Positions 1 through 47,799 of a stretch of 64,000 nt of DNA are shown one piece after another (the first letter of the stretch is position 1; every line of letters starts with the position of its first letter). The notes beneath the pieces are model-generated. The model saw only the letters and a program-made list of their open reading frames with translations, was not told the origin of the DNA and made no database searches. The translations under genes and the position numbers were made by a program. Source of the stretch: Candidatus Iainarchaeum sp. (lineage in GTDB: Archaea; Iainarchaeota; Iainarchaeia; Iainarchaeales; VGJJ01); NCBI GenBank assembly GCA_016198125.1, contig JACQJG010000018.1, positions 2,843-66,842 on the forward strand, written 5' to 3'.

Positions 1-570
1 CGCGCTTCTCCCTGCGCTGTCGCAAAGGATGAGATTTACTTTCTTTTTTTCCAATTCCTGCAGTCCTGCACGAATGACCTTGGCCGCGTTTTTTTCGTTG
101 GGCGTTGAGAAAAATTCAGTGCCTTCTACTTTGGCGGTTACTTGTTTCAATTGATCTACTGCGCCTGCACGGAAGGTATCTCCTGCAATAACCCCTATTT
201 TAAGTCCGCGTTTCTTGTAATAGTTTGCCAGTTTTCCTATTGCAGTGCTTTTTCCGCTTCCAAAAAGGCCGACCAGTAAAATGCGTTGAGGGTTTTCGGG
301 TATTTTGGGCGTGCCTCCAAGCAATTCTGCCAAATATTCATAGGTGATGGTTGCAAGGTGTTCTCTTCTTGTGAGTCCTTTTGGCAGGTCTTCTTTGAAG
401 GCTTCGCGTTCAATGCGCCTGCTTAATTCCAGTACAAGGTTCACTTCTACATCTGCTGAGATGAGCGCGCGCTGGATTTCTTTTACTATTTCTTTGATGG
501 CGTCCTTGTCCACTACACGCAGGTTCTGAACGGCTTCCATGGCCTTGCGCAGGCGTTCTCCTAATGACAT
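1..570 (-). CDS. srp54: Signal recognition particle protein SRP54, N-terminal part; C-terminus lies beyond the window start
   Basis: Minus-strand translation from the ATG (cat at 568-570) gives MSLGERLRKAMEAV..., then the P-loop GLFGSGKST and DTFRAGA typical of the SRP54/Ffh NG domain. The ORF is truncated at the window edge. Confidence 0.85.
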   Translation of the reverse strand, partial: MSLGERLRKAMEAVQNLRVVDKDAIKEIVKEIQRALISADVEVNLVLELSRRIEREAFKEDLPKGLTRREHLATITYEYLAELLGGTPKIPENPQRILLVGLFGSGKSTAIGKLANYYKKRGLKIGVIAGDTFRAGAVDQLKQVTAKVEGTEFFSTPNEKNAAKVIRAGLQELEKKKVNLILCDSAGRSA

Positions 571-635
571 GCAAAACTCCTTGGTAGTTTTACCCTGCAA
601 AACCCATTTAATGGGTGGGGGCTTGGCGTGGGACT

Positions 636-1691
636 TTACCCAAGTATGTTGTCTAATATGAATGTCGGGGTGAACGGTTTAAGGTCTCCGTATCCTTGCC
701 CCGTGCCCACAAATAAAATGGGTTTTTTGAGTTGATGCAATAAAGAGATGGCTGTGCCTCCTTTGGCGTCTGTGTCGATTTTTGTCAGAATGAACGCATC
801 AATTCCCACTTCTTTTTCGAGTGTTTGGGCTTGGTGCAGGAGGGCTTGCCCTGTGTATGCTTCTCCAACATAAATCTTCAAATCCGGTTTGGCCACGCGT
901 ACGATTTTTTTCAATTCTTCCATGAGGTTTTTGTTTGTTTCCTGTCTTCCGGCACAGTCAATGAGCACAGCGTCTGCGCGTTCAGCGTTTGCGGCTTTTA
1001 CAGCGTCGAATGCAACCGCGGCAGGGTCTGCGCCATACCGGTGTTTTACCAGTCTTGCATTGAGTTTTTGCGCATGCACTTCCAATTGTTCAATGCTTCC
1101 TGCCCTGAAAGTGTCCGCGCTTGCGAGGATGGCTTTTTTTCCTTTTGCTTGAAGATAGTGTGTTAGTTTGGCGATGGTGGTTGTCTTTCCTGCGCCATTG
1201 GGTCCCATGACTAAGATGACAAATGGTTTTTTGCGTTCCATTTCATCAAACAGGTTCACCTGGCGTGTTTGCATTATTTTTTCCAGTGCTGCGCGTACTT
1301 TTTCTTTCAGGAAACTGTTCACGTTTTCTTTGGATGGAATTTTTTGCCCTGCCAACTGCATTTGAAGTTCTTTTGTGAGGGCCTGCGCGGTTTCCTGTTC
1401 CACGTCCCCTTCAAGGAGCGCCAATTCCAGTTCATCCAGGAAGGGTTCCAATTCTTTTTGGGTTAATTCAATGCTTCCCGTGAGCGCGCCTGCCACTTTT
1501 TTTGCCACCCCCACGTCTGCTTCGAGCCTGCGCGCGGGTGATTCTTCTTTCAGGCCTTTCTTTTTTTCTTGAGGGGGTTTTTGGGGATCCGGGATTTTTA
1601 TGGCTTCCAATTGTTGGGTGCCGGCTTTTTGGCTGAGTCGCTGGGTAAAATCGTTTAGTTTTTTTTTCAGAAAATCAAACATGGGTTTCAC
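636..1691 (-). CDS. ftsY: SRP receptor FtsY
   Basis: 351-aa ORF with a charged N-terminus and an SRP-GTPase NG domain: GPNGAGKTTT P-loop, DTFRAG, and a TKIDTDAKGG-type G4/G5. Confidence 0.9.
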   Translation of the reverse strand: MKPMFDFLKKKLNDFTQRLSQKAGTQQLEAIKIPDPQKPPQEKKKGLKEESPARRLEADVGVAKKVAGALTGSIELTQKELEPFLDELELALLEGDVEQETAQALTKELQMQLAGQKIPSKENVNSFLKEKVRAALEKIMQTRQVNLFDEMERKKPFVILVMGPNGAGKTTTIAKLTHYLQAKGKKAILASADTFRAGSIEQLEVHAQKLNARLVKHRYGADPAAVAFDAVKAANAERADAVLIDCAGRQETNKNLMEELKKIVRVAKPDLKIYVGEAYTGQALLHQAQTLEKEVGIDAFILTKIDTDAKGGTAISLLHQLKKPILFVGTGQGYGDLKPFTPTFILDNILG

Positions 1692-2137
1692 TTTTTTTGC
1701 GCGGTTGCGTGCTGGGCGCGTTCAGCGGCTTGGAGAATTTGTTCGATTTCGCGCAGGTTTTGCACGGTTTTATTGTGTTCGGCTTGTACGCGCGTGAGTT
1801 CCTCTTGAAATAGCTTTTTGTTTGCCTCCAGGTTCTTTTGGATTTCTTCCAGGGTTGTGTTCACGATTACATTGGTTCCAATCATGCGCTTGACTTGAAC
1901 GTTCTTTGTAGTGCATTCCACATATGCCCCGGCTCCCAACGGAATGAGGGCCTGGCTTTCTTTTTCGTTTTTGAGCGCGTTTATGGCCAGCTGGGCATTT
2001 TCTGCCTGCATTAAAAGGACTTCAACTTCTCTTGCCCGCTGGTCAATGGCCGCGAGTTTCATTCGTTCGGCTTCATGGGCTTCCAGTACCTGCTGCCGCG
2101 TAAGTGTGATTTCTTTTTTTTGCTTTTTTTCAGCCAT
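1688..2137 (-). CDS. pfdA: Prefoldin alpha subunit
   Basis: 149 aa with coiled-coil N and C termini and a central beta-hairpin region. It lies in the conserved archaeal position between ftsY and rplX, with a 4-nt overlap with ftsY. Confidence 0.75.
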   Translation of the reverse strand: MAEKKQKKEITLTRQQVLEAHEAERMKLAAIDQRAREVEVLLMQAENAQLAINALKNEKESQALIPLGAGAYVECTTKNVQVKRMIGTNVIVNTTLEEIQKNLEANKKLFQEELTRVQAEHNKTVQNLREIEQILQAAERAQHATAQKK

Positions 2138-2158
2138 AGAGCATTCCTTCCTTTTTTT

Positions 2159-2350
2159 TCATTTCTTGTCTTCTTCGGAATGAGTAATGGTAATGTTGGT
2201 TCTTTTTAACCTGTGCCTGCTTCCCAGCGTTGAAAAGGCTTTTTCCACGGCGCTTCGCTCACTGAGGGCTTTTACACGGGTTGAAAACAGTTGCATTCCC
2301 TTCTTTGTTTTTAAACTGCCTTTAACGCTGAATGTTTTTTCTTGTGTCAT
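2159..2350 (-). CDS. rplX: Ribosomal protein LX (L18Ae/eL20 family)
   Basis: 63-aa basic protein located between eIF6 and pfdA in the conserved archaeal cluster. Confidence 0.6.
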   Translation of the reverse strand: MTQEKTFSVKGSLKTKKGMQLFSTRVKALSERSAVEKAFSTLGSRHRLKRTNITITHSEEDKK

Positions 2351-3021
2351 GTTCCTCCTCCGCTCAATCCGTCGTCAATGCGAATCATTTCAGGGCCCGA
2401 AGTCATTTCCCCCACAAGCGCTCCTTGGCTTGTTGCCACAAGGGAGTTTCCGACGAAAGGGTCTCCGTAATTTGCCGTGGTTGGAATGCCGTCAACTTTG
2501 AATAATGCTTCCAGTTTTTTTATTTCTTCAGGTGCTGCTCGGGGGTGTACAAGGAATCCTTGCTGATTTACCACTAAACTGCTTCCCACAAGTTCGGTGC
2601 CGGCAAGATTTGCGTGTATGATGGGGACTTTGAGAAAACCTTCCATTTCCTTTACTGCCTGAACGGGAATGCTTTTGCTTGCAAGTAATCCAAACGCATT
2701 GCCTGCCACCAGGTTTCCAATAGCAGTTACTTCTTTGACTTTATGGACTTCAATTCCAAGTCTTTGGAGGTGGGTTTCTTCGCGCGCTTCAATGGTTTGG
2801 GGTACGAGGAATTTGCTTCCAATTCCGCGGGCCATGACCCCCAATAGAGAAGTGCTTGCAATGCTGGTTGGAATGGTTTCCACCCCCAGCACATCTTCAA
2901 AGTGCTTGGCTTTTTTGCGTTCCGTGTTCAGTGGGATCAAGGACATTTTTTCTGTTACCGTGGAAAAAACCCCGATGAACGGGCTTCCATTCAGGGTTTG
3001 TTTTTCAATGTTCATCGCCAA
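2347..3021 (-). CDS. eif6: Translation initiation factor 6 (eIF6)
   Basis: 224 aa with the repeated eIF6 pentein pattern (GVFSTVTE, NLVAGNAFGLL, SLVATSQGALVG). Confidence 0.85.
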   Translation of the reverse strand: MAMNIEKQTLNGSPFIGVFSTVTEKMSLIPLNTERKKAKHFEDVLGVETIPTSIASTSLLGVMARGIGSKFLVPQTIEAREETHLQRLGIEVHKVKEVTAIGNLVAGNAFGLLASKSIPVQAVKEMEGFLKVPIIHANLAGTELVGSSLVVNQQGFLVHPRAAPEEIKKLEALFKVDGIPTTANYGDPFVGNSLVATSQGALVGEMTSGPEMIRIDDGLSGGGT

Positions 3022-3041
3022 ACCCCCTCTGCTTGTTGTCT

Positions 3042-3473
3042 CTATTCAATCCCGCGTTTGATGGCTTCTTTTTGGGCCTGTTCTTCCATGCGTTTTTTTT
3101 CTTCAAGTTTTTTTCCTGCTTCAACTTGCTCCGGGGATTTTTCGTCCTTCTTTTCAGGGGTTATTTCTTCCTTTTTTTTCTCTGCCTTTTGGGCTTTGCG
3201 CTTGTTTTCGAATTCCTGCAATTGAGTGCCTTCTTTCAGGAATACGTGCACGTTTTCCCCGTCTTCTTTTAATTGAATGGTGAACTTTTTTGGCTTTTTT
3301 TGCTTGCTTCGGCTCCAAATGTACTCGTTTACTTCGTTGCTTACTTTGATGTTTTCAGGTTCTTTTCTGGTGTGCTTTTGAACGAATTTTTTTAGGAATG
3401 TAACGCTTTTGTTTGCGATTCTCCCCCTGGGTTTGCGTACTTCGTTCAATGAAACCATGTATTCGTTGTTCAT
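3042..3473 (-). CDS. rpl31e: Ribosomal protein eL31 with Lys/Glu-rich C-terminal extension
   Basis: N-terminal 90 aa match the eL31 core (VSLNEVRKPRG...VTFLKKFVQKHTRKEP...WSRS). The C-terminal ~50 aa are K/E-rich low complexity. Confidence 0.8.
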   Translation of the reverse strand: MNNEYMVSLNEVRKPRGRIANKSVTFLKKFVQKHTRKEPENIKVSNEVNEYIWSRSKQKKPKKFTIQLKEDGENVHVFLKEGTQLQEFENKRKAQKAEKKKEEITPEKKDEKSPEQVEAGKKLEEKKRMEEQAQKEAIKRGIE

Positions 3474-3487
3474 GTTTTATTCCTCTT

Positions 3488-3769
3488 TTAGTAGCTGCCC
3501 TCGTACTTTCTTTTTTCGCTGCGTGGAACCTTGTTGTGGTAATGTTTTCCGCTTTTGACTTTGAATGCGCGCTGGTATTCTTCTTTTTCGCGTTTTCTGT
3601 ATTCTTTGCCCAGCGTGGTGTGCCGCCAGTGCCTTTTTTGCTTGGGGTTGAAAATCCTGCGCCCGGCTTTCTGCAGCACCCATACAGGGGCATTGGTGAT
3701 GCTTGCGGATATTTTTTTTCGCGTTGTAATGAGGAATTCCTTTAATTCCGGGTCCTTGTTTCGTGCCAT
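3488..3769 (-). CDS. rpl39e: Ribosomal protein eL39 with ~40-aa basic C-terminal extension
   Basis: From the ATG at 3767-3769: MARNKDPELKEF...NAPVWVLQKAGRRIFNPKQKRHWRHTTLG matches the eL39 core (about 51 aa). The frame then continues with KEYRKREKEEYQ...RKYEGSY before the stop. Confidence 0.7.
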   Translation of the reverse strand: MARNKDPELKEFLITTRKKISASITNAPVWVLQKAGRRIFNPKQKRHWRHTTLGKEYRKREKEEYQRAFKVKSGKHYHNKVPRSEKRKYEGSY

Positions 3770-3770
3770 T

Positions 3771-4091
3771 TTATTTTCTCCTGATGCTGATTTCCTTCTT
3801 ATGCGATAATTTTGCGAGCAGGCCAACCAATTCCTGTTCTGATAAGCGTTGCTGGATTCTCCCGGCTTGGGCCGCGTACAAGAGGTATTGCACTGTTTGG
3901 GCGTACCGCTCTGGGTTTACCAGTCGTACATTGGAAAGCCGGTTCTTGGCTTCGGGGGACAGGATTTTGCGCAGCACTCCTTCCATTTGTTGCTGGGCGT
4001 GGAGTTCTTGTTCTTCTTGTTGCCGCTCCATGAATTTTTTCTTTAACTCTTGGAGTTTTTTTTCCCGTGCCTCTTCGTGCGCGTCTTCCAT
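3771..4091 (-). CDS. PDCD5/TFAR19-like DNA-binding protein (COG2118)
   Basis: Start taken at MEDAHEE (cat at 4089-4091) to avoid overlap with rps19e. The conserved C-terminal block is LRKILSPEAKNRLSNVRLVNPERYAQTVQYLLYAAQAG, and the gene sits in the usual archaeal position beside rpl39e. The longer ORF to 4301 overlaps rps19e. Confidence 0.6.
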   Translation of the reverse strand: MEDAHEEAREKKLQELKKKFMERQQEEQELHAQQQMEGVLRKILSPEAKNRLSNVRLVNPERYAQTVQYLLYAAQAGRIQQRLSEQELVGLLAKLSHKKEISIRRK

Positions 4092-4104
4092 TCTCTTCCC
4101 CTTT

Positions 4105-4701
4105 TTATGCGTTTTGTGCTTGGGTTCCCTCCTTGAGTTTTTGCTTTTTCTTGTCGTCGCGTGACGCTGCGTCTTCTTTTGGTTTTCCGCCTTCGCTTTG
4201 CCTGCGCAGGGCTTCGCGGATGGTCTTTTCTTCTGCGCTGACCGTTGTTTTTTCTTCGCGTTTGACTTTTTTTTCAGGTCCTTCGCGTTGAATGCGTTCA
4301 AGGGTTTTTTTGCTGATTGTGTTCAAGTACTTTTGCCCGGCGGGCGTGAGAATTCTTCCTTTTTTTTCTTTTTTTACGAACTGGTTTTTTTCCAGGGCTT
4401 GAAGGCACGTGCGAATGACTTTTCCGCCTGCTTTTGTGAACCGGTGGGGTCTTACTCCGCGTGCTTTTTTGCCTCCGTAATACGTACGCAGGCTTTCAGT
4501 CCCCAAGGGGCCTTCGCGGTAAATGCGGTATAAAATGCTTGCGCACCGCATGAACCACCAGTCGCGTTGCAGGGGCGCGCGTTCGGCATGGGCTCCGCTT
4601 TTCACGTAGTCTATAAAGCGCGGCTGGTTTAATCCCTTGGTTTTAAGGTCTTCTTTTAGGTCTTGAATGAGTTCGCTTGCCGGAACATCCAATATTCCCA
4701 T
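4105..4701 (-). CDS. rps19e: Ribosomal protein eS19 with K-rich C-terminal extension
   Basis: The N-terminal 150 aa match eS19 (DVPASELIQDLKEDLK...HAERAPLQRDWWFMRCASILYRIYREGPLG...YGGKKARGVRPHRF). About 45 aa of K/E-rich tail follow. Confidence 0.8.
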   Translation of the reverse strand: MGILDVPASELIQDLKEDLKTKGLNQPRFIDYVKSGAHAERAPLQRDWWFMRCASILYRIYREGPLGTESLRTYYGGKKARGVRPHRFTKAGGKVIRTCLQALEKNQFVKKEKKGRILTPAGQKYLNTISKKTLERIQREGPEKKVKREEKTTVSAEEKTIREALRRQSEGGKPKEDAASRDDKKKQKLKEGTQAQNA

Positions 4702-4801
4702 AACGCTTCCTCCCCTTGCGGGGCCGTCAAAGAGGGTTTTTACCCTTCTGCAGGTTGAAAACCCGATTGAAGTGGTTTAAAGGAATTCCCCTGCTAATGG
4801 T

Positions 4802-5125
4802 TTAAAAACGTTTGCCGGGGGGTGTGCCCAGCCGGTAGCGTTTTGTTGTTTTGCATTCCTTGCACGTGGCGTTGAGCATGCTTCCTTTAACACGTTTCAC
4901 TATGTTGAACCCTTCTTTCCACGGGGTTTTGCAGTGCTTGCAATACGCAGTTTTAATGTCCAACGGCATTCGCATTCTATACCGCGTGGAAATGCGTTCC
5001 AGCAGTTGAATGTACCGTTTGCTTCGTTCAGGGTGTTTTGAATGGGCTTCTTGTGCGAGTTCAAGCAGGCGGTACATGCGTTCCAATGCAATGTGTTGAA
5101 CGAAGTTTTTTTTGGGTGCCGGCAT
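4802..5125 (-). CDS. rnp4: RNase P protein subunit Rpp21 (Rnp4)
   Basis: 107 aa with a helical N-terminus (IALERMYRLLELAQEA) and a C-terminal zinc ribbon (CKHCKT...CKECKT). Confidence 0.7.
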   Translation of the reverse strand: MPAPKKNFVQHIALERMYRLLELAQEAHSKHPERSKRYIQLLERISTRYRMRMPLDIKTAYCKHCKTPWKEGFNIVKRVKGSMLNATCKECKTTKRYRLGTPPGKRF

Positions 5126-5138
5126 GTTTTTTCCTTTG

Positions 5139-6215
5139 TTAAAGTGTTTTTTGTTCTTTTTGTATTTCTCTTATTTTTTGCGTTGCAAGCCGTATCCCTT
5201 CGCGCAGCGTGCCTTCGCGGAACCCGGAAAGGGTAGTGCCATATCTCTTGAGGGATTTGAAGCACAAGGTCATGAGTGTTTTGTACGCCGTCCAGTGTTT
5301 GATACGCGCGTGGAGTAGCCGTGCGCGAAGGGTCTTAAGTTCTTGAGGGGTTAATGCGGCAAGCCCGGATTTTTCTTTTGCTTCTGTGTATTCCCTGAAC
5401 AGGTCCAGGGCGTTTTTTTGGATTTCTTCCAGCTCTATTTTATGGTTTTCAATGGTTTTGTGGTCTTGTAATGCTGCTTCGGGATATTGGCTGACGTATT
5501 CTACCCGTTCGCGTGCTTGGGCTGCTTTTTTTTCTGCTGTTTGCAGGCGCCACAAATTGCTTTCCATACGTTCTTTTATGATTTGAAAGTTGTGTTCGCG
5601 GATTTCAAGCGGGTCGCTGGACCAGCGCTGAAAGTATGTTTTAAGCATTACAAGTTTTTCTCCGCACGAACGGTATAATGCGGCAAGTTGCGTGTAAATC
5701 GTGTACAGTTCAAGATTGTGCGAGAAAAGGTCTGTGATGTTGGTGGAAGGATTGTTTTCTTTTGGGCGTTTCCGCAAGAGTGCGTTAACGTGTTCTTTTT
5801 GTTTATATATGCGGTCGTCTAATTTTTCCAGGTATTTTTGAAACACGCGGCCATAACGTGCGCCGATCTCCCTATAATAATCATCTGATTTCAATGGCCG
5901 CGGTTTTCTTTGGCGCCATTCATACAGCGTTTTTAAGCGCTTGTTTTTTTCTTTCCTTGCTGCCCAATCCAATGCACTGTCAATGTCCTGCAGAACATAT
6001 TCTTTTTTTGTGCGCTTGAATATTTTTCCGCGGGAGGCTTTGGTGCGCAGGCGTTCAGGGTTAAAAACGTATTTTACGCTGCGGCGCAGCGCGCGTAATT
6101 GCGCATCCACTGGCAGGGCATGGAATGTCCTGGACCCGGGAATAGGCTTTTTTTTTCTTTGCATGTACTGCTCATGCGTGCGGCCTATTTTAACGCGTGG
6201 GGCTTGGATTGGCAT
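5139..6215 (-). CDS. Hypothetical alpha-helical protein, co-operonic with the PEP-utilizer domain gene
   Basis: 358-aa ORF predicted to be helical with coiled-coil-like segments. It overlaps the upstream gene by 26 nt on the same strand. No recognisable motif. Confidence 0.5.
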   Translation of the reverse strand: MPIQAPRVKIGRTHEQYMQRKKKPIPGSRTFHALPVDAQLRALRRSVKYVFNPERLRTKASRGKIFKRTKKEYVLQDIDSALDWAARKEKNKRLKTLYEWRQRKPRPLKSDDYYREIGARYGRVFQKYLEKLDDRIYKQKEHVNALLRKRPKENNPSTNITDLFSHNLELYTIYTQLAALYRSCGEKLVMLKTYFQRWSSDPLEIREHNFQIIKERMESNLWRLQTAEKKAAQARERVEYVSQYPEAALQDHKTIENHKIELEEIQKNALDLFREYTEAKEKSGLAALTPQELKTLRARLLHARIKHWTAYKTLMTLCFKSLKRYGTTLSGFREGTLREGIRLATQKIREIQKEQKTL

Positions 6216-7527
6216 TTAAACGCTTTACAATTCCATTACGGGCGTCCACCTCAACCAGGTCCCAGTCGTGAAGGGCCTTGGTGGCCTGGGGCACTCCCAC
6301 AAGGGTTGGGATTTTGAATTCCCGTGCAAAGATTGCACTGTGCGTTAGCAATCCCCCCATTTCTATGATCATACCGTGGGCTTTGTGCATCCACGGCTCG
6401 TATTGTACAAGGGTTTCAGCAGCCACTAAAATATCCCCCGGGTTTACTTTTGAAATGTCTTCCAGGGAATGCACTACTTTTACAGGCCCAATGGCTTTTC
6501 CGGGGCATGCAATTTGGCCCGTAAACGTTTCCTGGTTGCTGGGTTTAAACGCGAAGCGTTCTTTGAGCGCATGATACTCTTCAATGGAAAGCGGTCGGAC
6601 TCCTTGAGGGGTTTTTACAAGTCCTTTGAATGTAAAGCGTTCTCCTAGTTTTTCAGGGCCTTGTCCTGTTTTCAGGGCGTATTCTATTTCTTTTGGCAGC
6701 AGTACTTCCCAGTACTTTTCATGCAACCCTATACGTTTCAATGCCTCTGTGAATAAAGGCCGCATGCAGTACAACGCGTAATTGTACGCATCAATGCGCT
6801 CGAACTTCAACCACAAAAACAGCTGTAATTCTTTTAACAAGGCATTCCGGCTTACTTTTATTTTTTTGGGCAGTGTAGCCGTTTTTCTTAATTGCATTAA
6901 ATCCGCTGGAGTAAGGGCCTTGCCGCGCAGCAGGCTGAGCCCATACCAGCCAAATGCGCGCGCCAGTCGCTTCAATGCATGTTCATCGCCTGGTCGCATC
7001 TTCAAGAGTTTTTCGTTGAGTCGTTCGGCTGACACCTTTCTCAAGGGACGGATTTCCTGGAAGTTTATTTTGGGTATTTTTTTAACGATGTAGGGTTCTA
7101 CTGCGTTCGCGGTTGGCAAGTAGGTCCACAGGAATCCAAGCGTTTCACGCATTCTTTCGTGAAATCGTTCCACTTCTCTTGAAAGCCGTTCATTGGAGTA
7201 CTTTTCAAAGGGTTTATGCCTGTTCTTATCGGAATAATCTTTTAGTTTTTTGATTGCTTTTTGGCATTTGGCATTCCATTTTTTCAGGAACCCTGCCGGG
7301 TTTTTTTCAATGAGGAGTTGGAGTTTCTTGCCTTTTTCTTTTTGGAAGTGGAATTCATCGTCAATGACCAGCATGAATTCTTGCGAGAATGCTATTCCAA
7401 AGTTTTTCTTGTAATTGGCAGTGTTTTCTGCTTCAAAAGATAATGCATTGAAATAAGTGCTGTTGGGCCAAGCCCCTAATTTTGGAAACTCTTCGGGGTT
7501 GAAACGTTGCAGGTCTTCTCCAGGCAT
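6190..7527 (-). CDS. PEP-utilizing enzyme mobile (phosphohistidine) domain protein with an unknown ~330-aa N-terminal domain
   Basis: The C-terminal ~90 aa carry the PEP-utilizer signature (ACPGKAIGPVKVV...GDILVAAETLVQYEPWMHKAHGMIIEMGGLLTHSAIFAREFKIPTLVGV). No ATP-grasp/PPDK_N motifs are visible upstream of it. Confidence 0.65.
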   Translation of the reverse strand: MPGEDLQRFNPEEFPKLGAWPNSTYFNALSFEAENTANYKKNFGIAFSQEFMLVIDDEFHFQKEKGKKLQLLIEKNPAGFLKKWNAKCQKAIKKLKDYSDKNRHKPFEKYSNERLSREVERFHERMRETLGFLWTYLPTANAVEPYIVKKIPKINFQEIRPLRKVSAERLNEKLLKMRPGDEHALKRLARAFGWYGLSLLRGKALTPADLMQLRKTATLPKKIKVSRNALLKELQLFLWLKFERIDAYNYALYCMRPLFTEALKRIGLHEKYWEVLLPKEIEYALKTGQGPEKLGERFTFKGLVKTPQGVRPLSIEEYHALKERFAFKPSNQETFTGQIACPGKAIGPVKVVHSLEDISKVNPGDILVAAETLVQYEPWMHKAHGMIIEMGGLLTHSAIFAREFKIPTLVGVPQATKALHDWDLVEVDARNGIVKRLNANPSPTR

Positions 7528-7552
7528 GTCAATTACTTGTGAGTTTGTGGAT

Positions 7553-8382
7553 TTAAATGGTGGCGATAGCCCCGTCTTGAGTGTTTATCCAAATCCTTTC
7601 CAGCACGCGTTCTTCATCAGGGTTATTTCCATGGATGGCGTGCAGGTATTGGTGGTTGTCGAACACAAGCAAATCGTTTTCTTTCCAATAATGCGTGAGT
7701 ACAAGGGATTGGTCTAATGCATAGTAAGGTTTTGAATGGCTTTGGCAGTGGTGCGTAAATCCGGCACAGGGGGCAAATCATTTTCCGCTGTAATGCGCGG
7801 AAAAATAATGGAGCGTCTAGGGAGCGTTATAACGTGGCTTTCTTTCCACGGGTGCTTTCTAATCAAGGGGGTGGGTTGGAGTTCCAGCGGTTTTCCAGCC
7901 GGGATCGTGTCCAGTTTGGACAGCGTGTCCATAAATGGGCTCAGCATGTTGAGTGCGTGCGTAGTGTCAGTTAATAGCGTTGGATTTTCACTTTTCCCGG
8001 GGTTAACACAATATAGTAAGACAAGGTGCGGGGGCAGCGCATGATGACTACCGTCCGTGTGCCAGTCAAAGAGAGGCTGGGCTGATGTGCCCTTACAAGA
8101 GGGGTATTCTTCTCGTACAAAGGAAAGGTATCCTCCACTGCTTCGTACAAGGGAAAAGGTTTTGGACTGCGCTGCATACTCAAAAAAGTCTTTGGGTTTG
8201 AAGTCCACTTTTAAAAGGTCAAACCCTTGTTTGTGCCAATCGTGTTTGCATAACCAGTCAAAAAATTCACGGGTTGAAAGAAGCGTGGAGTTGGGTGAAG
8301 GAATTGTTTCTCGGAGGGTGGTCTGGGTTTCTGTCCACATGAATTGCATTATTGTTTTATTTTTAAAGGCTTTTAGTTTCAT
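7553..8382 (-). pseudogene. TauD/TfdA-family Fe(II)/2-oxoglutarate dioxygenase, interrupted by a -1 frameshift at a C5 run (G5 on plus strand, 7768-7772)
   Basis: The frame from M (cat 8380-8382) carries WHTDGSHHALPPHLVLLYCVNPG...SENPTLL, which is TauD-like, and ends at a TAG at 7714-7716. The conserved C-terminus (HYWKENDLLVFDNHQYLHAIHG...ERIWINT) continues in another frame down to the TAA at 7553-7555. Adding one C at the C5 run joins the two frames. Confidence 0.55.
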
Positions 8383-9446: not shown

Positions 9447-9517
9447 TGCAGTCGCCGGGAATCGAACCCGGGCCTCGACCTTGGAAGGGTCGAACGCTAC
9501 CTCTACGCTACGACTGC
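9447..9517 (-). tRNA. tRNA-Gly (anticodon UCC)
   Basis: Minus-strand RNA GCAGUCG...CGACC-CUUCCAA-GGUCG...GGGUUCGAUUCCC...CGACUGCA, with a 7-bp acceptor stem, T-loop and anticodon loop. The D-stem is short. No CCA is encoded. Confidence 0.8.
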
Positions 9518-10292: not shown

Positions 10293-10363
10293 TGCAGCGA
10301 CCGGGAATCGAACCCGGGTCACGACCTTGGGAAGGTCGTAGAATGCCATTATCCCATCGCTGC
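10293..10363 (-). tRNA. tRNA-Gly (anticodon CCC)
   Basis: Minus-strand RNA GCAGCGA...CGACC-UUCCCAA-GGUCG...GGGUUCGAUUCCC...UCGCUGCA. Confidence 0.8.
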
Positions 10364-10411: not shown

Positions 10412-11008
10412 TTAGTTGTCTTCATGGCGCGCGTCGAAGCGAATGACCCTGTTATTGTCCCGGCGCTCGGCTTTTCTTCTGTCGTCTTTTCTGCGCGTGG
10501 ACGCCCAGTAAAAGTGTTGTTTGGACGGGTCATATCCAATGAGGTAGTCTCTCTTGCCAGTCGTAAAACGTGCGCCGGGCATTTTTTCAGGCCCTATTTT
10601 TAGATGTGCAATGGCTTGGGCGCGCGTGCAGGAATGTTCTTTTGCAATCATTCTTACGCGGTGTTCGACTGCTTGGCGTGTTTTTGTAAACCATTCTTTA
10701 GGTAATGCCTTGTCTGCCGCGTATTTGGTTGGAATGTATTCCCTCCAAGCCATTGCTTCGCGCCTGCCTTTGAAGGGGGGCTTAACGCTCTGGTTTTCGC
10801 GCCATTCCTTGCGTAAATCGTTTTCATGGGTTCTGTTTTCAAACCCGCTTCTGCGTTCTCTTCCGGTGTACACGCCCTTTTGCGGTGCGTATTGTAAGGC
10901 AGGTTCGCCTTCGTTTAGAGTTCCCAATTGCATGTGCGCAGGCTTTATCACCCGAATGGACAAACCTTTAATGGGCGCATGCGGGGTGGTGGAGCGTTTC
11001 TTGGGCAT
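10412..11008 (-). CDS. Hypothetical basic (R/K-rich) protein
   Basis: 198-aa ORF with balanced composition and no recognisable motif. Confidence 0.4.
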   Translation of the reverse strand: MPKKRSTTPHAPIKGLSIRVIKPAHMQLGTLNEGEPALQYAPQKGVYTGRERRSGFENRTHENDLRKEWRENQSVKPPFKGRREAMAWREYIPTKYAADKALPKEWFTKTRQAVEHRVRMIAKEHSCTRAQAIAHLKIGPEKMPGARFTTGKRDYLIGYDPSKQHFYWASTRRKDDRRKAERRDNNRVIRFDARHEDN

Positions 11009-17583: not shown

Positions 17584-17655
17584 TGCGATCGCCGGGAATC
17601 GGACCCGGGTCCCGACCTTGGCAAGGTCGGATCATAGCCACTAGACCACGATCGC
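17584..17655 (-). tRNA. tRNA-Gly (anticodon GCC)
   Basis: Minus-strand RNA GCGAUCG...CCGACC-UUGCCAA-GGUCGG...CCGGGUCCGAUUCCCGG...CGAUCGCA. Confidence 0.8.
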
Positions 17656-28111: not shown

Positions 28112-28159
28112 AATATCATATACTTTGAATAAGCGGTTGAATTAAAAACAAAATGGAAG

Positions 28160-28231
28160 TGGGCCCGGGCGGAGTCGAACCGCCAATGTATTCCGTGTAA
28201 GGGAATCGTCTTTCCGATAGACCACGGGCCC
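28160..28231 (-). tRNA. tRNA-Val (anticodon UAC)
   Basis: Minus-strand RNA GGGCCCG-UG-GUCU-AUCGGAA-AGAC-G-AUUCC-CUUACAC-GGAAU-ACAUU-GGCGG-UUCGACU-CCGCC-CGGGCCC-A folds as a cloverleaf. Confidence 0.8.
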
Positions 28232-44003: not shown

Positions 44004-44306
44004 ATGGGGAAAGCAGTGCCCAAAGGGGTAAAGCGAAAGGCCGCGTTGTTGATGACTGAGTTTCCAAAGGAGTTTGGGGATTTTGAAAAAAACAAGGTTT
44101 TTTTGTCTTCGTTGAAAATTCCGTTTGACAAGATTACTCGAAACCTGGTGGCTGGTTTTATTGCCAGGGAAAACCGTAAAGCCCATGAAAAGGCCCGGGC
44201 AGAGGAAGCTTCAAGGAAAAAGGCATTGGAAGCAGCCATGGCGCCAAAGCCCAAGCCTGTGATTTCCACTCAAACGCCAGAAACTCTTCCCACTCCAAGC
44301 TCTTGA
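44004..44306 (+). CDS. rps17e: Ribosomal protein eS17
   Basis: MGKAVPKGVKRKAALLMTEFPKEFGDFEKNKVFL...ITRNLVAGFIAR matches the eS17 N-terminal domain. The C-terminus is a K/A/P-rich tail. Confidence 0.8.
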   Translation: MGKAVPKGVKRKAALLMTEFPKEFGDFEKNKVFLSSLKIPFDKITRNLVAGFIARENRKAHEKARAEEASRKKALEAAMAPKPKPVISTQTPETLPTPSS

Positions 44307-46768: not shown

Positions 46769-47155
46769 TTATGGGTGTTTGTATTTCATGCGCGTGCCTG
46801 GCTTGTTTGCAGGCCCGTAGGGGTGCATGCGATTACGGATTTTTGTGGTGCGCATGCGTTTTCTTCCCAGGCCTGGGATGAGCGTGGGCATATGGGTTCC
46901 AACCAAATTGCCGTGCTTGTCTATGTACACAAACGTGAACTGTTCCAGGAACGTTTTCAGCTTTTTATTGCGCCGTGATTCCTCTCCCAAGGCCTTTCCC
47001 ACGTCAATGGTGTGGGACTTGATTTTTTTGAGAATTCCTCTATACGTTGCCGGGTATTGGGCGCTGAGCGCGCGGTTCTTGCGCATGTCCAATAAGTAGG
47101 TTATGCGCTTGTGCGATTCCGCGTTCAGCTTTTCCGGGTATTTGGGTCGTGCCAT
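46769..47155 (-). CDS. Hypothetical basic protein (128 aa)
   Basis: ORF with an R/K-rich C-terminus (GRKRMRTTKIRNRMHPYGP). It could be a small RNA-binding or ribosomal-type protein, but no family could be assigned. Confidence 0.4.
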   Translation of the reverse strand: MARPKYPEKLNAESHKRITYLLDMRKNRALSAQYPATYRGILKKIKSHTIDVGKALGEESRRNKKLKTFLEQFTFVYIDKHGNLVGTHMPTLIPGLGRKRMRTTKIRNRMHPYGPANKPGTRMKYKHP

Positions 47156-47210: not shown

Positions 47211-47471
47211 CTATAAAAGGTCCATGCGTTCCACTTCAACTTGTTCCACGCCTTGCACGCGTTTAAGTGCCATAGTAAGCCTTTCAATGGCCCCAGCGTC
47301 CTTGTCTTCTATTACATAGGCTGCTTTTACAATGCTGGCTCCAAATCCAATGGGAACCAGCTGGCAGTCTTTGAATCCTTCCAATGCCAGGCCTTTAACA
47401 CTTTCCATGATTTTAGGGGATTCTTCCACGTCCACAGGGCTGATGCGAAATACGACCAATGCTTTTCCCAT
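47211..47471 (-). CDS. ef1b: Translation elongation factor aEF-1 beta
   Basis: 86 aa: VVFRISPVD...PIGFGASIVKAAYVIEDKDAGA...VEVERMD matches the aEF1B fold. Confidence 0.8.
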   Translation of the reverse strand: MGKALVVFRISPVDVEESPKIMESVKGLALEGFKDCQLVPIGFGASIVKAAYVIEDKDAGAIERLTMALKRVQGVEQVEVERMDLL

Positions 47472-47487: not shown

Positions 47488-47643
47488 TTATGGACCTGTA
47501 AACCCGCATTCCGGGCATGTATAGGTTTTCGCGGTTTGCCGGCAGTGCTTGCACCGTAAAATGGTGTGCTTGGCGCACTTGGGGCACTTGAATTCCACGA
47601 AGTCTTTTAACACGAGCGTATTGCAACTTGAACAAACCGCCAT
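47488..47643 (-). CDS. Zn-ribbon protein (COG2888-like), usually found next to aEF-1 beta
   Basis: 51-aa ORF MAVCSSCNTLVLKDFVEFKCPKCAKHTILRCKHCRQTAKTYTCPECGFTGP with four CxxC pairs. It is too short for the ORF track. Confidence 0.6.
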   Translation of the reverse strand: MAVCSSCNTLVLKDFVEFKCPKCAKHTILRCKHCRQTAKTYTCPECGFTGP

Positions 47644-47717: not shown

Positions 47718-47792
47718 GGCCCCGTAGCTTAGTCTGGATAGAGTGTCGGGCTTCGGACCCGAAGGTCGGGGGTTCAAATCCCTCCGGGGTCG
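47718..47792 (+). tRNA. tRNA-Arg (anticodon UCG)
   Basis: GGCCCCG...UCGGG-CUUCGGA-CCCGA...GGGGG-UUCAAAU-CCCUC-CGGGGUC-G. Acceptor and T arms with GGUUCAAAUCC. Confidence 0.8.
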
Positions 47793-47799
47793 CTAGAAT

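Follow-up and report, generated by a model that had tools for sequence, protein, structure and literature searches.

Three ribosomal proteins encoded in one minus-strand gene cluster of Candidatus Iainarchaeum sp., eS19, eL39 and eL31, carry long, charged C-terminal tails that begin where their solved archaeal counterparts end, and the same three tails are found throughout the surveyed Iainarchaeota (Diapherotrites). The window, i.e., the whole stretch of DNA analyzed here, comprises 64,000 nucleotides (nt) of contig JACQJG010000018.1 (assembly GCA_016198125.1), and all coordinates below refer to it. That the tails are real, lineage-wide and selected is a conclusion in which we have high confidence. 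The fuller reading, in which they are genuine translated C-terminal extensions that arose as a shared derived trait of this phylum and were kept by selection as extensions of the ribosome surface, we consider probable (about 0.6). The genes and tails concerned are the following.

4105-4701, minus strand: eS19, 198 residues; core 1-136 according to Pfam, extending to about 146 by comparison with Pyrococcus eS19
4108-4293, minus strand: eS19 C-terminal tail, 62 residues, Lys/Glu/Arg-rich, net charge +5
4198-4221, minus strand: IREALRRQ motif within the eS19 tail
3771-4091, minus strand: PDCD5-like protein (dsDNA_bind), 106 residues, Pfam PF01984 with E=8.9e-21; no tail, internal control
3488-3769, minus strand: eL39, 93 residues from the ATG at 3769; core 1-55
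3491-3604, minus strand: basic C-terminal tail of eL39, 38 residues (56-93), EYRKREKEEYQRAFKVKSGKHYHNKVPRSEKRKYEGSY, net charge +7
3042-3473, minus strand: eL31, 143 residues; core 1-85
3045-3218, minus strand: eL31 C-terminal tail, 58 residues (86-143), QEFENKRK...AIKRGIE, a Lys/Glu-rich linker followed by a terminal module
3051-3125, minus strand: terminal module of the eL31 tail, VEAGKKLEEKKRMEEQAQKEAIKRG

The cores of eS19 and eL39 are those of ordinary family members. eS19 matches Pfam PF01090 with 152.8 bits (cut-off 29.4), its residues 4-134 covering positions 3-135 of the 137 in the profile, and phmmer finds the solved chain 2v7f_A with E=1.3e-36; the protein is 100% identical to an NCBI entry named 'MAG: 30S ribosomal protein S19e [Candidatus Diapherotrites archaeon]', MAG denoting a metagenome-assembled genome. 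eL39 matches PF00832 over residues 27-53 (26.0 bits, cut-off 21.6) and solved archaeal chains with E=1.2e-4, and it has the N-terminal MARNK in common with the latter. A longer open reading frame (ORF) with a TTG start was rejected as the eL39 gene, since MARNK..., read from the ATG at 3769, is the N-terminus of solved archaeal eL39. With 23.3 bits, eL31 stays just below the 25-bit cut-off of PF01198, yet its residues 2-80 align with the solved chain 9e6q_Aa (E=9.8e-9), and its slot between eL39 and eIF6 is the same as in the window wherever both neighbors are present (78 loci); PDB matches and synteny agree on the assignment. NCBI lists the identical eL31 protein (HY393_03660) as 'hypothetical protein'.

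The excess length was measured against every solved chain in the PDB. eS19, with 198 residues, is longer than the solved chains (126-174 residues; archaeal 144-158, eukaryotic 139-174), and alignments stop at its residues 143-145, leaving 62 residues past the Pfam core and about 51 past the Pyrococcus C-terminus. For eL31, 143 residues compare with 82-95 in solved archaeal chains, and alignment stops at residue 80 or so, which amounts to some 58-62 extra residues; eL39 has 93 residues against 49-51, alignment stops at residue 53 or 54, and 38 residues are extra. In other words, canonical archaeal eS19, eL31 and eL39 (PF01090, PF01198, PF00832; Pyrococcus and Thermococcus ribosomes 4V6U and 6SKF) have the same cores, gene order and presumably the same binding sites, but end where the tails start, the proteins of the window being 38-62 residues longer. 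Neither the eS19 nor the eL39 tail occurs in any solved archaeal or eukaryotic chain, barring one 102-residue database form and one fusion, and the eL31 tail has no match among solved eL31 chains. The 102-residue form, 9i1w_Ll from Chaetomium thermophilum, was rejected as a precedent for an extended eL39; other depositions from the same organism have 51 residues, and the entry is probably a database long form and not a genuine extension.

Much of this had been anticipated by the original prediction, a model-made note based on the letters of this DNA. Its identities and coordinates for eL31, eL39, eS19 and eS17 are correct, as are the length it gave for eL39 (about 93 residues against a core of about 51; solved chains have 49-51) and its view that such tails are atypical of archaea. 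The three genes it called adjacent do lie in one cluster, but not strictly side by side, as the PDCD5-like gene at 3771-4091 separates eL39 from eS19. Its figure of 45-50 extra residues on eL31 and eS19 captured the extension and was too low for eL31 (about 58-62), the value for eS19 being about 51-62. Its term 'basic' fits the eL39 tail only, those of eL31 and eS19 being of mixed charge. The label 'eukaryote-like', finally, is not supported: eukaryotic eS19 (139-174 residues) and eL39 (about 51 residues) are tail-less, and alignments to eukaryotic eS19, eL31, eL39 and eS17 all stop at the core.

To follow the tails through the phylum, one genome per GTDB species was used, giving 80 loci, about 76 of them from Iainarchaeota (Iainarchaeum andersonii and the complete genome of Forterrea are among these); Methanobrevibacter and two Archaeoglobales provided outgroup loci. 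Tail lengths were obtained by mapping the cores from the window onto the stop-to-stop ORFs of each locus, and the eL31 survey covers loci fetched through eS19, as a word-index search with eL31 retrieved nothing but that protein. Across the surveyed loci the gene order eS19-PDCD5-eL39-eL31-eIF6-LX-prefoldin-FtsY is the same. In the 76 Iainarchaeota loci, eS19 tails measure 14-176 residues (median 58) and reach at least 20 residues in 75; in the outgroups they measure 7-11, as do the C-terminal residues of solved archaeal eS19 chains. eL39 tails have 7-54 residues (median 31) in the same 76 loci and are absent (0 residues) from the two Archaeoglobales loci, while the Methanobrevibacter locus yielded no eL39 ORF. 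Wherever eL31 is complete, as it is in 75 Iainarchaeota loci, it has a tail of 46-88 residues (median 59), compared with 0 in the outgroups. The 100-odd nearest relatives of the window eS19 mostly have 185-270 residues; named eS19 proteins from Aenigmatarchaeota, Methanosarcinales and Micrarchaeota have 141-149. The suggestion that the tails might be a lineage signature, to be looked for in related MAGs, is thus borne out: all three are conserved across the surveyed Iainarchaeota, and the outgroup loci and the eS19 of named Aenigmatarchaeota, Micrarchaeota and Methanosarcinales lack them. In a rough neighbor-joining tree of the concatenated cores (495 columns, no support values), all ingroup branches carry the three tails, so that the simplest reading places the origin of the trait in the ancestry of the Iainarchaeota sampled here.

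The tails are of three architectures: basic in eL39, a linker with a predicted terminal helix in eL31, and, in eS19, a segment predicted to extend the last core helix into a single one of about 50 residues. The eL39 tail of the window contains 8 Lys, 5 Arg and 6 Glu among 38 residues, and across the Iainarchaeota loci Lys makes up 31% and Arg 13%, with a net charge of +0.39 per residue. Many lineages have a motif resembling LFKKKQxEQGKxxNxKxxKSGKK, which appears as ...FKVKSGKH... in the window, and a clade of 11 species has KGTKRNVGKxNPNxHRMHKKK. All 24 eL39 relatives found by a filter-free search of 1.84 billion representatives have 61-117 residues.

In eL31, a variable linker is followed by a conserved module of about 25 residues with the consensus EEEKKKKLEEKKEKEKAAEKAAIKRK (KKLEEKKxKEKAAEKAAIKRK). 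A hidden Markov model (HMM) of this module gives 17-40 bits for 55 of the 76 tails and no more than 0.8 bits for 760 shuffled ones, and two or three further tails contain it by eye. The window tail has 15 Lys, 15 Glu and 3 Arg in 58 residues (net charge +2); the averages across loci are 33% Lys, 24% Glu and 12% Ala, with a slight net positive charge. AlphaFold2 (AF2), run on the single sequence, predicts helices at residues 85-102 and 114-142, the latter with a predicted local distance difference test score (pLDDT) of 71-73; between them, at 103-113, lies a break of low confidence that contains Pro. For eS19, of which the window tail has 12 Lys, 10 Glu and 6 Arg in 62 residues and the tails across loci average 26% Lys, 18% Glu and 11% Ala, AF2 with an alignment of 35 sequences gives a core with pLDDT above 90, whose last helix extends as a single helix through residues 120-170 (pLDDT about 72), followed by a further helix at 178-197 (pLDDT about 53). 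A motif resembling xEAL(K/R)(K/R)Q can be seen in the reading frame of many homologues; among the 77 locus tails about 20 have it, chiefly in the part of the tree around the window.

The eL31 and eS19 tails are close to neutral (+0.10 charge per residue), and the charged fraction of the tails is 0.50-0.66. In these two tails, oppositely charged residues are enriched at spacings 2-4 (z=3.4-7.3) and not at 5 or 7, a pattern that would be compatible with salt-bridged helices and is not specific to them. Charged single alpha-helix (SAH, ER/K) segments, as in myosin VI and X, offer a comparison: the charged fraction of 57-66%, the enrichment of opposite charges at spacings 3-4 (z=3.4-7.2) and the long lone helices in the predicted models are alike, but the tails are less charged than classic SAHs, are broken by Pro and Gly, and are also enriched in pairs at spacing 2. 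We take this as a resemblance only.

The original prediction had named a missed stop codon, hidden by an indel in one of the A-rich runs, as the way in which the tails could turn out to be out-of-frame artefacts. Runs of 5-8 A are indeed present in the tail-coding DNA, which is 46-50% A. However, positions 3042-4701 (1.66 kb) are reproduced at 100% identity, without any indel, in the run-level assemblies SRR12113383 and SRR12113384, where gene calling gives the same products of 198, 106, 93 and 143 residues. Neighboring genes of the operon lie 13-20 nt apart or overlap, the ATG of eL39 overlapping the stop codon of the PDCD5-like gene, and the packing at 13-20 nt holds only when the tails are coding. 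Conserved motifs are in-frame downstream of the A-runs, within the tails of eS19 and eL39 and, in that of eL31, at its far end; tails are found in 76 independent species genomes; and the annotated frame is under purifying selection (see below). A sequencing or assembly error thus has a practically negligible chance of being the explanation.

A more serious competitor, and in our view the main one, is neutral low-complexity growth, in which slippage of purine-rich repeats adds Lys and Glu codons at exposed termini that tolerate them, with no specific function. The coding strand is A-rich and tail composition mirrors it, and the sequence and length of the linkers vary widely. Tandem repeats are enriched about six-fold in the tail DNA: it accounts for 5.8% of the locus DNA, yet 34% of the weak tandem-repeat arrays overlap it, most of them built from units of 6-24 nt of the AAG/GAA type. 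In other lineages the appendage of eL31 is N-terminal, and the tail of eS17 comes and goes among relatives (see below for both). The survey speaks against it. All three tails are retained in each of the 76 species, the shortest eS19 tail having 14 residues. Three neighbor genes of the same A-rich operon, those for the PDCD5-like protein, eIF6 and LX, almost never gained a tail: the median is 0 in Iainarchaeota, the PDCD5-like protein (tail length 0 in 71 loci) and eIF6 extend at most 5 residues past their cores, and LX has a tail of at least 20 residues in 1 of 58 loci (39 residues, in L069). In the outgroups the value for these three proteins is likewise 0, barring a 12-residue overhang on the LX of Methanobrevibacter. 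Recurrence on just these three genes in 76 species genomes exceeds what chance would give.

Selection on the tails themselves points in the same direction. The ratio of nonsynonymous to synonymous substitution rates (dN/dS), pooled by the method of Nei and Gojobori (NG86) in the annotated frame over 15-16 closely related locus pairs, is 0.30 for the tail and 0.10 for the core of eS19, 0.16 and 0.07 for eL39, and 0.18 and 0.16 for eL31. Tail values of 0.16-0.30, together with conservation of the eL31 module and the eL39 motifs well above shuffled controls, speak against neutral growth, and we rate that explanation as possible but unlikely.

Several observations nevertheless weigh against selected surface extensions. 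dN/dS is noisy in low-complexity sequence, and the pairs used are phylogenetically non-independent. The tail helices predicted by AF2 have moderate to low pLDDT values (50-73), and K/E sequences are readily over-predicted as helix. The linkers are weakly conserved. The eL31 module, although spread over the whole ingroup, is gone from the clade with the HRMHKK motif, which is sister to the window in the tree, from the Forterrea clade and from a few single lineages, where the tails are rich in Lys, Thr, Ala and Pro; having been lost in at least three clades, it is therefore dispensable. Finally, an N-terminal eL31 extension in related lineages fits a general tolerance of charged appendages as well as it fits docking.

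That N-terminal extension was seen in two more distant eS19 relatives, L081 (4874-5359) and L084 (1594-2076), from GCA_053989195.1 and SRR22388062. Their eL31 has no C-terminal tail and instead about 80 N-terminal residues rich in Lys, Glu, Ser and Ala; their eS19 tails are rich in Ser, Thr, Lys and Arg or in Pro, Gly and Thr, and the operon is without PDCD5-like and LX genes.

The absence of LX (eL20) was also noted within Iainarchaeota. In 15 loci (L003, L008, L010, L012, L017, L022, L024, L027, L029, L041, L053, L068, L072, L075 and L079), the gap between eIF6 and prefoldin measures 14-126 nt, as opposed to about 201 nt when LX is present. The LX-less clades are exactly those whose eL31 tail lacks the module, and no locus without LX retains it. 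This co-loss comprises only about three independent events and may be a coincidence. Docking of the eL31 module on LX was accordingly not adopted, also because solved archaeal ribosomes show eL20 in contact with eL14 and uL6.

On the ribosome, eL31 sits at the rim of the peptide-tunnel exit and eS19 on the head of the small subunit. A review describes eL39 as standing in for the uL23 loop in the wall of the tunnel and extending to its exit, eL31 as having neither extension nor protein partner in known archaeal and eukaryotic ribosomes, and eukaryotic extensions as chiefly mediating surface contacts (PMC9932298). Within the reading of the tails as selected surface extensions, we tentatively propose that they act by contact or anchoring, a mechanism we hold to be possible but a little short of even odds. 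The linkers probably arose, and vary in length, because purine-rich AAG/GAA repeats slip on the A-rich coding strand; tandem-repeat arrays are concentrated in the tail DNA. The basic eL39 tail would bind rRNA phosphates on the surface of the large subunit, beside the tunnel exit where eL39 ends. The eL31 tail would act as tether and anchor, with a charged, largely helical and hinged spacer of roughly 45-90 Å holding out the conserved terminal helix toward a fixed partner at or close to the face of the tunnel exit; rRNA, a neighboring protein or a ribosome-associated factor could be that partner. The charged helix of eS19 may project from the small-subunit head. The net outcome would be a remodeled surface of the ribosome in a lineage whose genomes are small.

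A rival explanation, raised in the original prediction, is contact with rRNA expansion segments; these would be lineage-specific and contacted in the manner of eukaryotic extensions. The strongly basic eL39 tail would suit it, and eukaryotic protein extensions and expansion segments co-occur (PMC9932298). The mixed-charge tails of eL31 and eS19, at +0.10 per residue, are atypical of RNA-binding tails, however, and our literature search brought up no account of such segments from Iainarchaeota or from DPANN archaea at large. No rRNA gene was found in the window (Rfam), in the 86 fetched loci (conserved rRNA motifs) or on the contig as extended via other assemblies. We regard this explanation as rather improbable.

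Alternatively, gene fusion could have joined a further small ribosomal protein or domain to the cores, of which the tails would be what is left. Two features of the eL39 tails would fit, a basicity like that of small ribosomal proteins and, in certain clades, a conserved motif (HRMHKK). Searching Pfam with four tail sequences, though, gave a single match at E<=1, a chance-level one to COX7a (E=0.065). The tails have no match among PDB sequences, and the eL31 module has none in Pfam and, with its HMM, none among PDB chains at E<=10. In addition, the intervals between these cores in the usual archaeal operon offer no gene that might have been taken up into them. A fusion origin appears very improbable.

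A bolder extension of the anchoring mechanism would combine the two large-subunit tails into a lineage-specific, built-in platform at the tunnel exit, with the eL39 tail lying on rRNA and the eL31 helix serving as a tethered dock that recruits or replaces a nascent-chain, targeting or membrane factor. We offer this as speculation and think it unlikely to be correct. Were it true, a new ribosome architecture would have evolved in a genome-reduced DPANN phylum that is not on the line to eukaryotes.

The tails belong to a known general kind, that of lineage-specific charged extensions of ribosomal proteins. In eukaryotes, the C-terminal extension of eS17 contacts mRNA, and the C-terminal helix of eL19 forms bridge eB12 (PMC9932298). 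These too are long C-terminal appendages, charged or helical, of ribosomal proteins specific to archaea and eukaryotes, and their working principle is plausibly similar; but they are on different proteins and have no sequence similarity to the Iainarchaeota tails, which originated independently in one DPANN phylum. Further examples are the Ala/Lys-rich C-terminus of uS19 in Parcubacteria of the candidate phyla radiation (CPR) (PMC9297842) and the histone-H1-like tails of mosquito RpS6 and RpL23a (cited in PMC11764897). They too are clade-restricted, low-complexity, Lys-rich terminal additions, and the CPR is likewise a lineage of ultra-small cells. They are on other proteins and in other domains of life and are not homologous to the Iainarchaeota tails, which differ in being longer, in mixing Lys with Glu, in affecting three proteins at once and, in eL31, in having a conserved terminal module.

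The tail-bearing proteins are already in public databases, and we found no paper describing tails of ribosomal proteins in Diapherotrites/Iainarchaeota. The literature tends to treat lineage-specific extensions of ribosomal proteins as an elaboration of eukaryotes and to portray DPANN archaea as streamlined. In the present case, an entire phylum of DPANN archaea has lengthened three ribosomal proteins of the archaea/eukaryote-specific kind by 40-180 residues each. The unexpected element of the trait is the conserved, predicted tethered helix on eL31, a protein described without extension in any known ribosome; its function is inferred. In practice, the tails offer an easy marker by which MAGs can be assigned to Iainarchaeota from sequence, and the long forms of these proteins are a warning against trimming them as errors. 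For structural work, the tunnel-exit face and the small-subunit head of the Iainarchaeota ribosome present themselves as targets if such a ribosome can be obtained.

The remaining genes of the cluster, which spans 636-5125 on the minus strand and comprises the standard archaeal gene set, and the separately encoded eS17 are listed here.

4802-5125, minus strand: Rpr2
2347-3021, minus strand: eIF6
2159-2350, minus strand: LX/eL20
1688-2137, minus strand: prefoldin alpha
636-1691, minus strand: FtsY
44004-44306, plus strand: eS17, 100 residues, with a tail of about 35 residues at 44199-44303, AEEASRKKALEAAMAPKPKPVISTQTPETLPTPSS

Like eL31, eS17 stays just below the Pfam cut-off (21.4 bits against 22.8 for PF00833), yet it matches the solved chain 9e71_BS with E=1.5e-5, its homologues at 49-63% identity carry PF00833, and PDB matches and synteny are again in line with the assignment. 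With 100 residues it is longer than solved archaeal eS17 (64-71 residues), alignment stopping at about residue 60-69. NCBI lists it (HY393_03970) as 'hypothetical protein' with a later start codon, at 96 residues and 99% identity. That both eL31 and eS17 are named in this way is probably due to divergent cores that score just below the Pfam cut-offs and to long tails that dilute the match. The K/A/P tail described in the original prediction exists, but its composition is better given as A/K/E-rich (AEEASRKKALEAAMAPKPKPV...) and then P/T/S-rich. As for its eukaryote-like character, eS17 alone carries its extension at the end where the eukaryotic protein has one, but the tail does not align with the eukaryotic extension and matches only close relatives: it is common to just two relatives at 78-80% identity, and other Diapherotrites eS17 proteins have 60-94 residues. 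Judged by its sequence distribution, the eS17 tail is a young local feature outside the phylum-wide set.

A few further features of the window were noted. Its coding strand is extremely A-rich, with a plus-strand AT skew of -0.36 to -0.40 where genes run on the minus strand (positions 1-8000 and throughout). Five tRNA genes are present; three of them, tRNA-Gly with anticodons TCC, CCC and GCC, are on the minus strand within 8 kb of one another (9447-9517, 10293-10363 and 17584-17655), and tRNA-Val (28159-28231) and tRNA-Arg (47718-47793) are in other parts of the window. The minus-strand ORFs at 5139-6215, 10412-11008 and 46769-47155, of 358, 198 and 128 residues, are without Pfam match; the first lies in the ribosomal neighborhood, between Rpr2 and a larger ORF at 6190-7527, and is rich in Lys, Glu and Arg (30%). 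A small zinc-finger protein of 51 residues resembling HVO_2753 is encoded at 47488-47643 on the minus strand (PF07754, E=4.8e-15), beside a gene at 47211-47471 that we presume to encode aEF-1beta.

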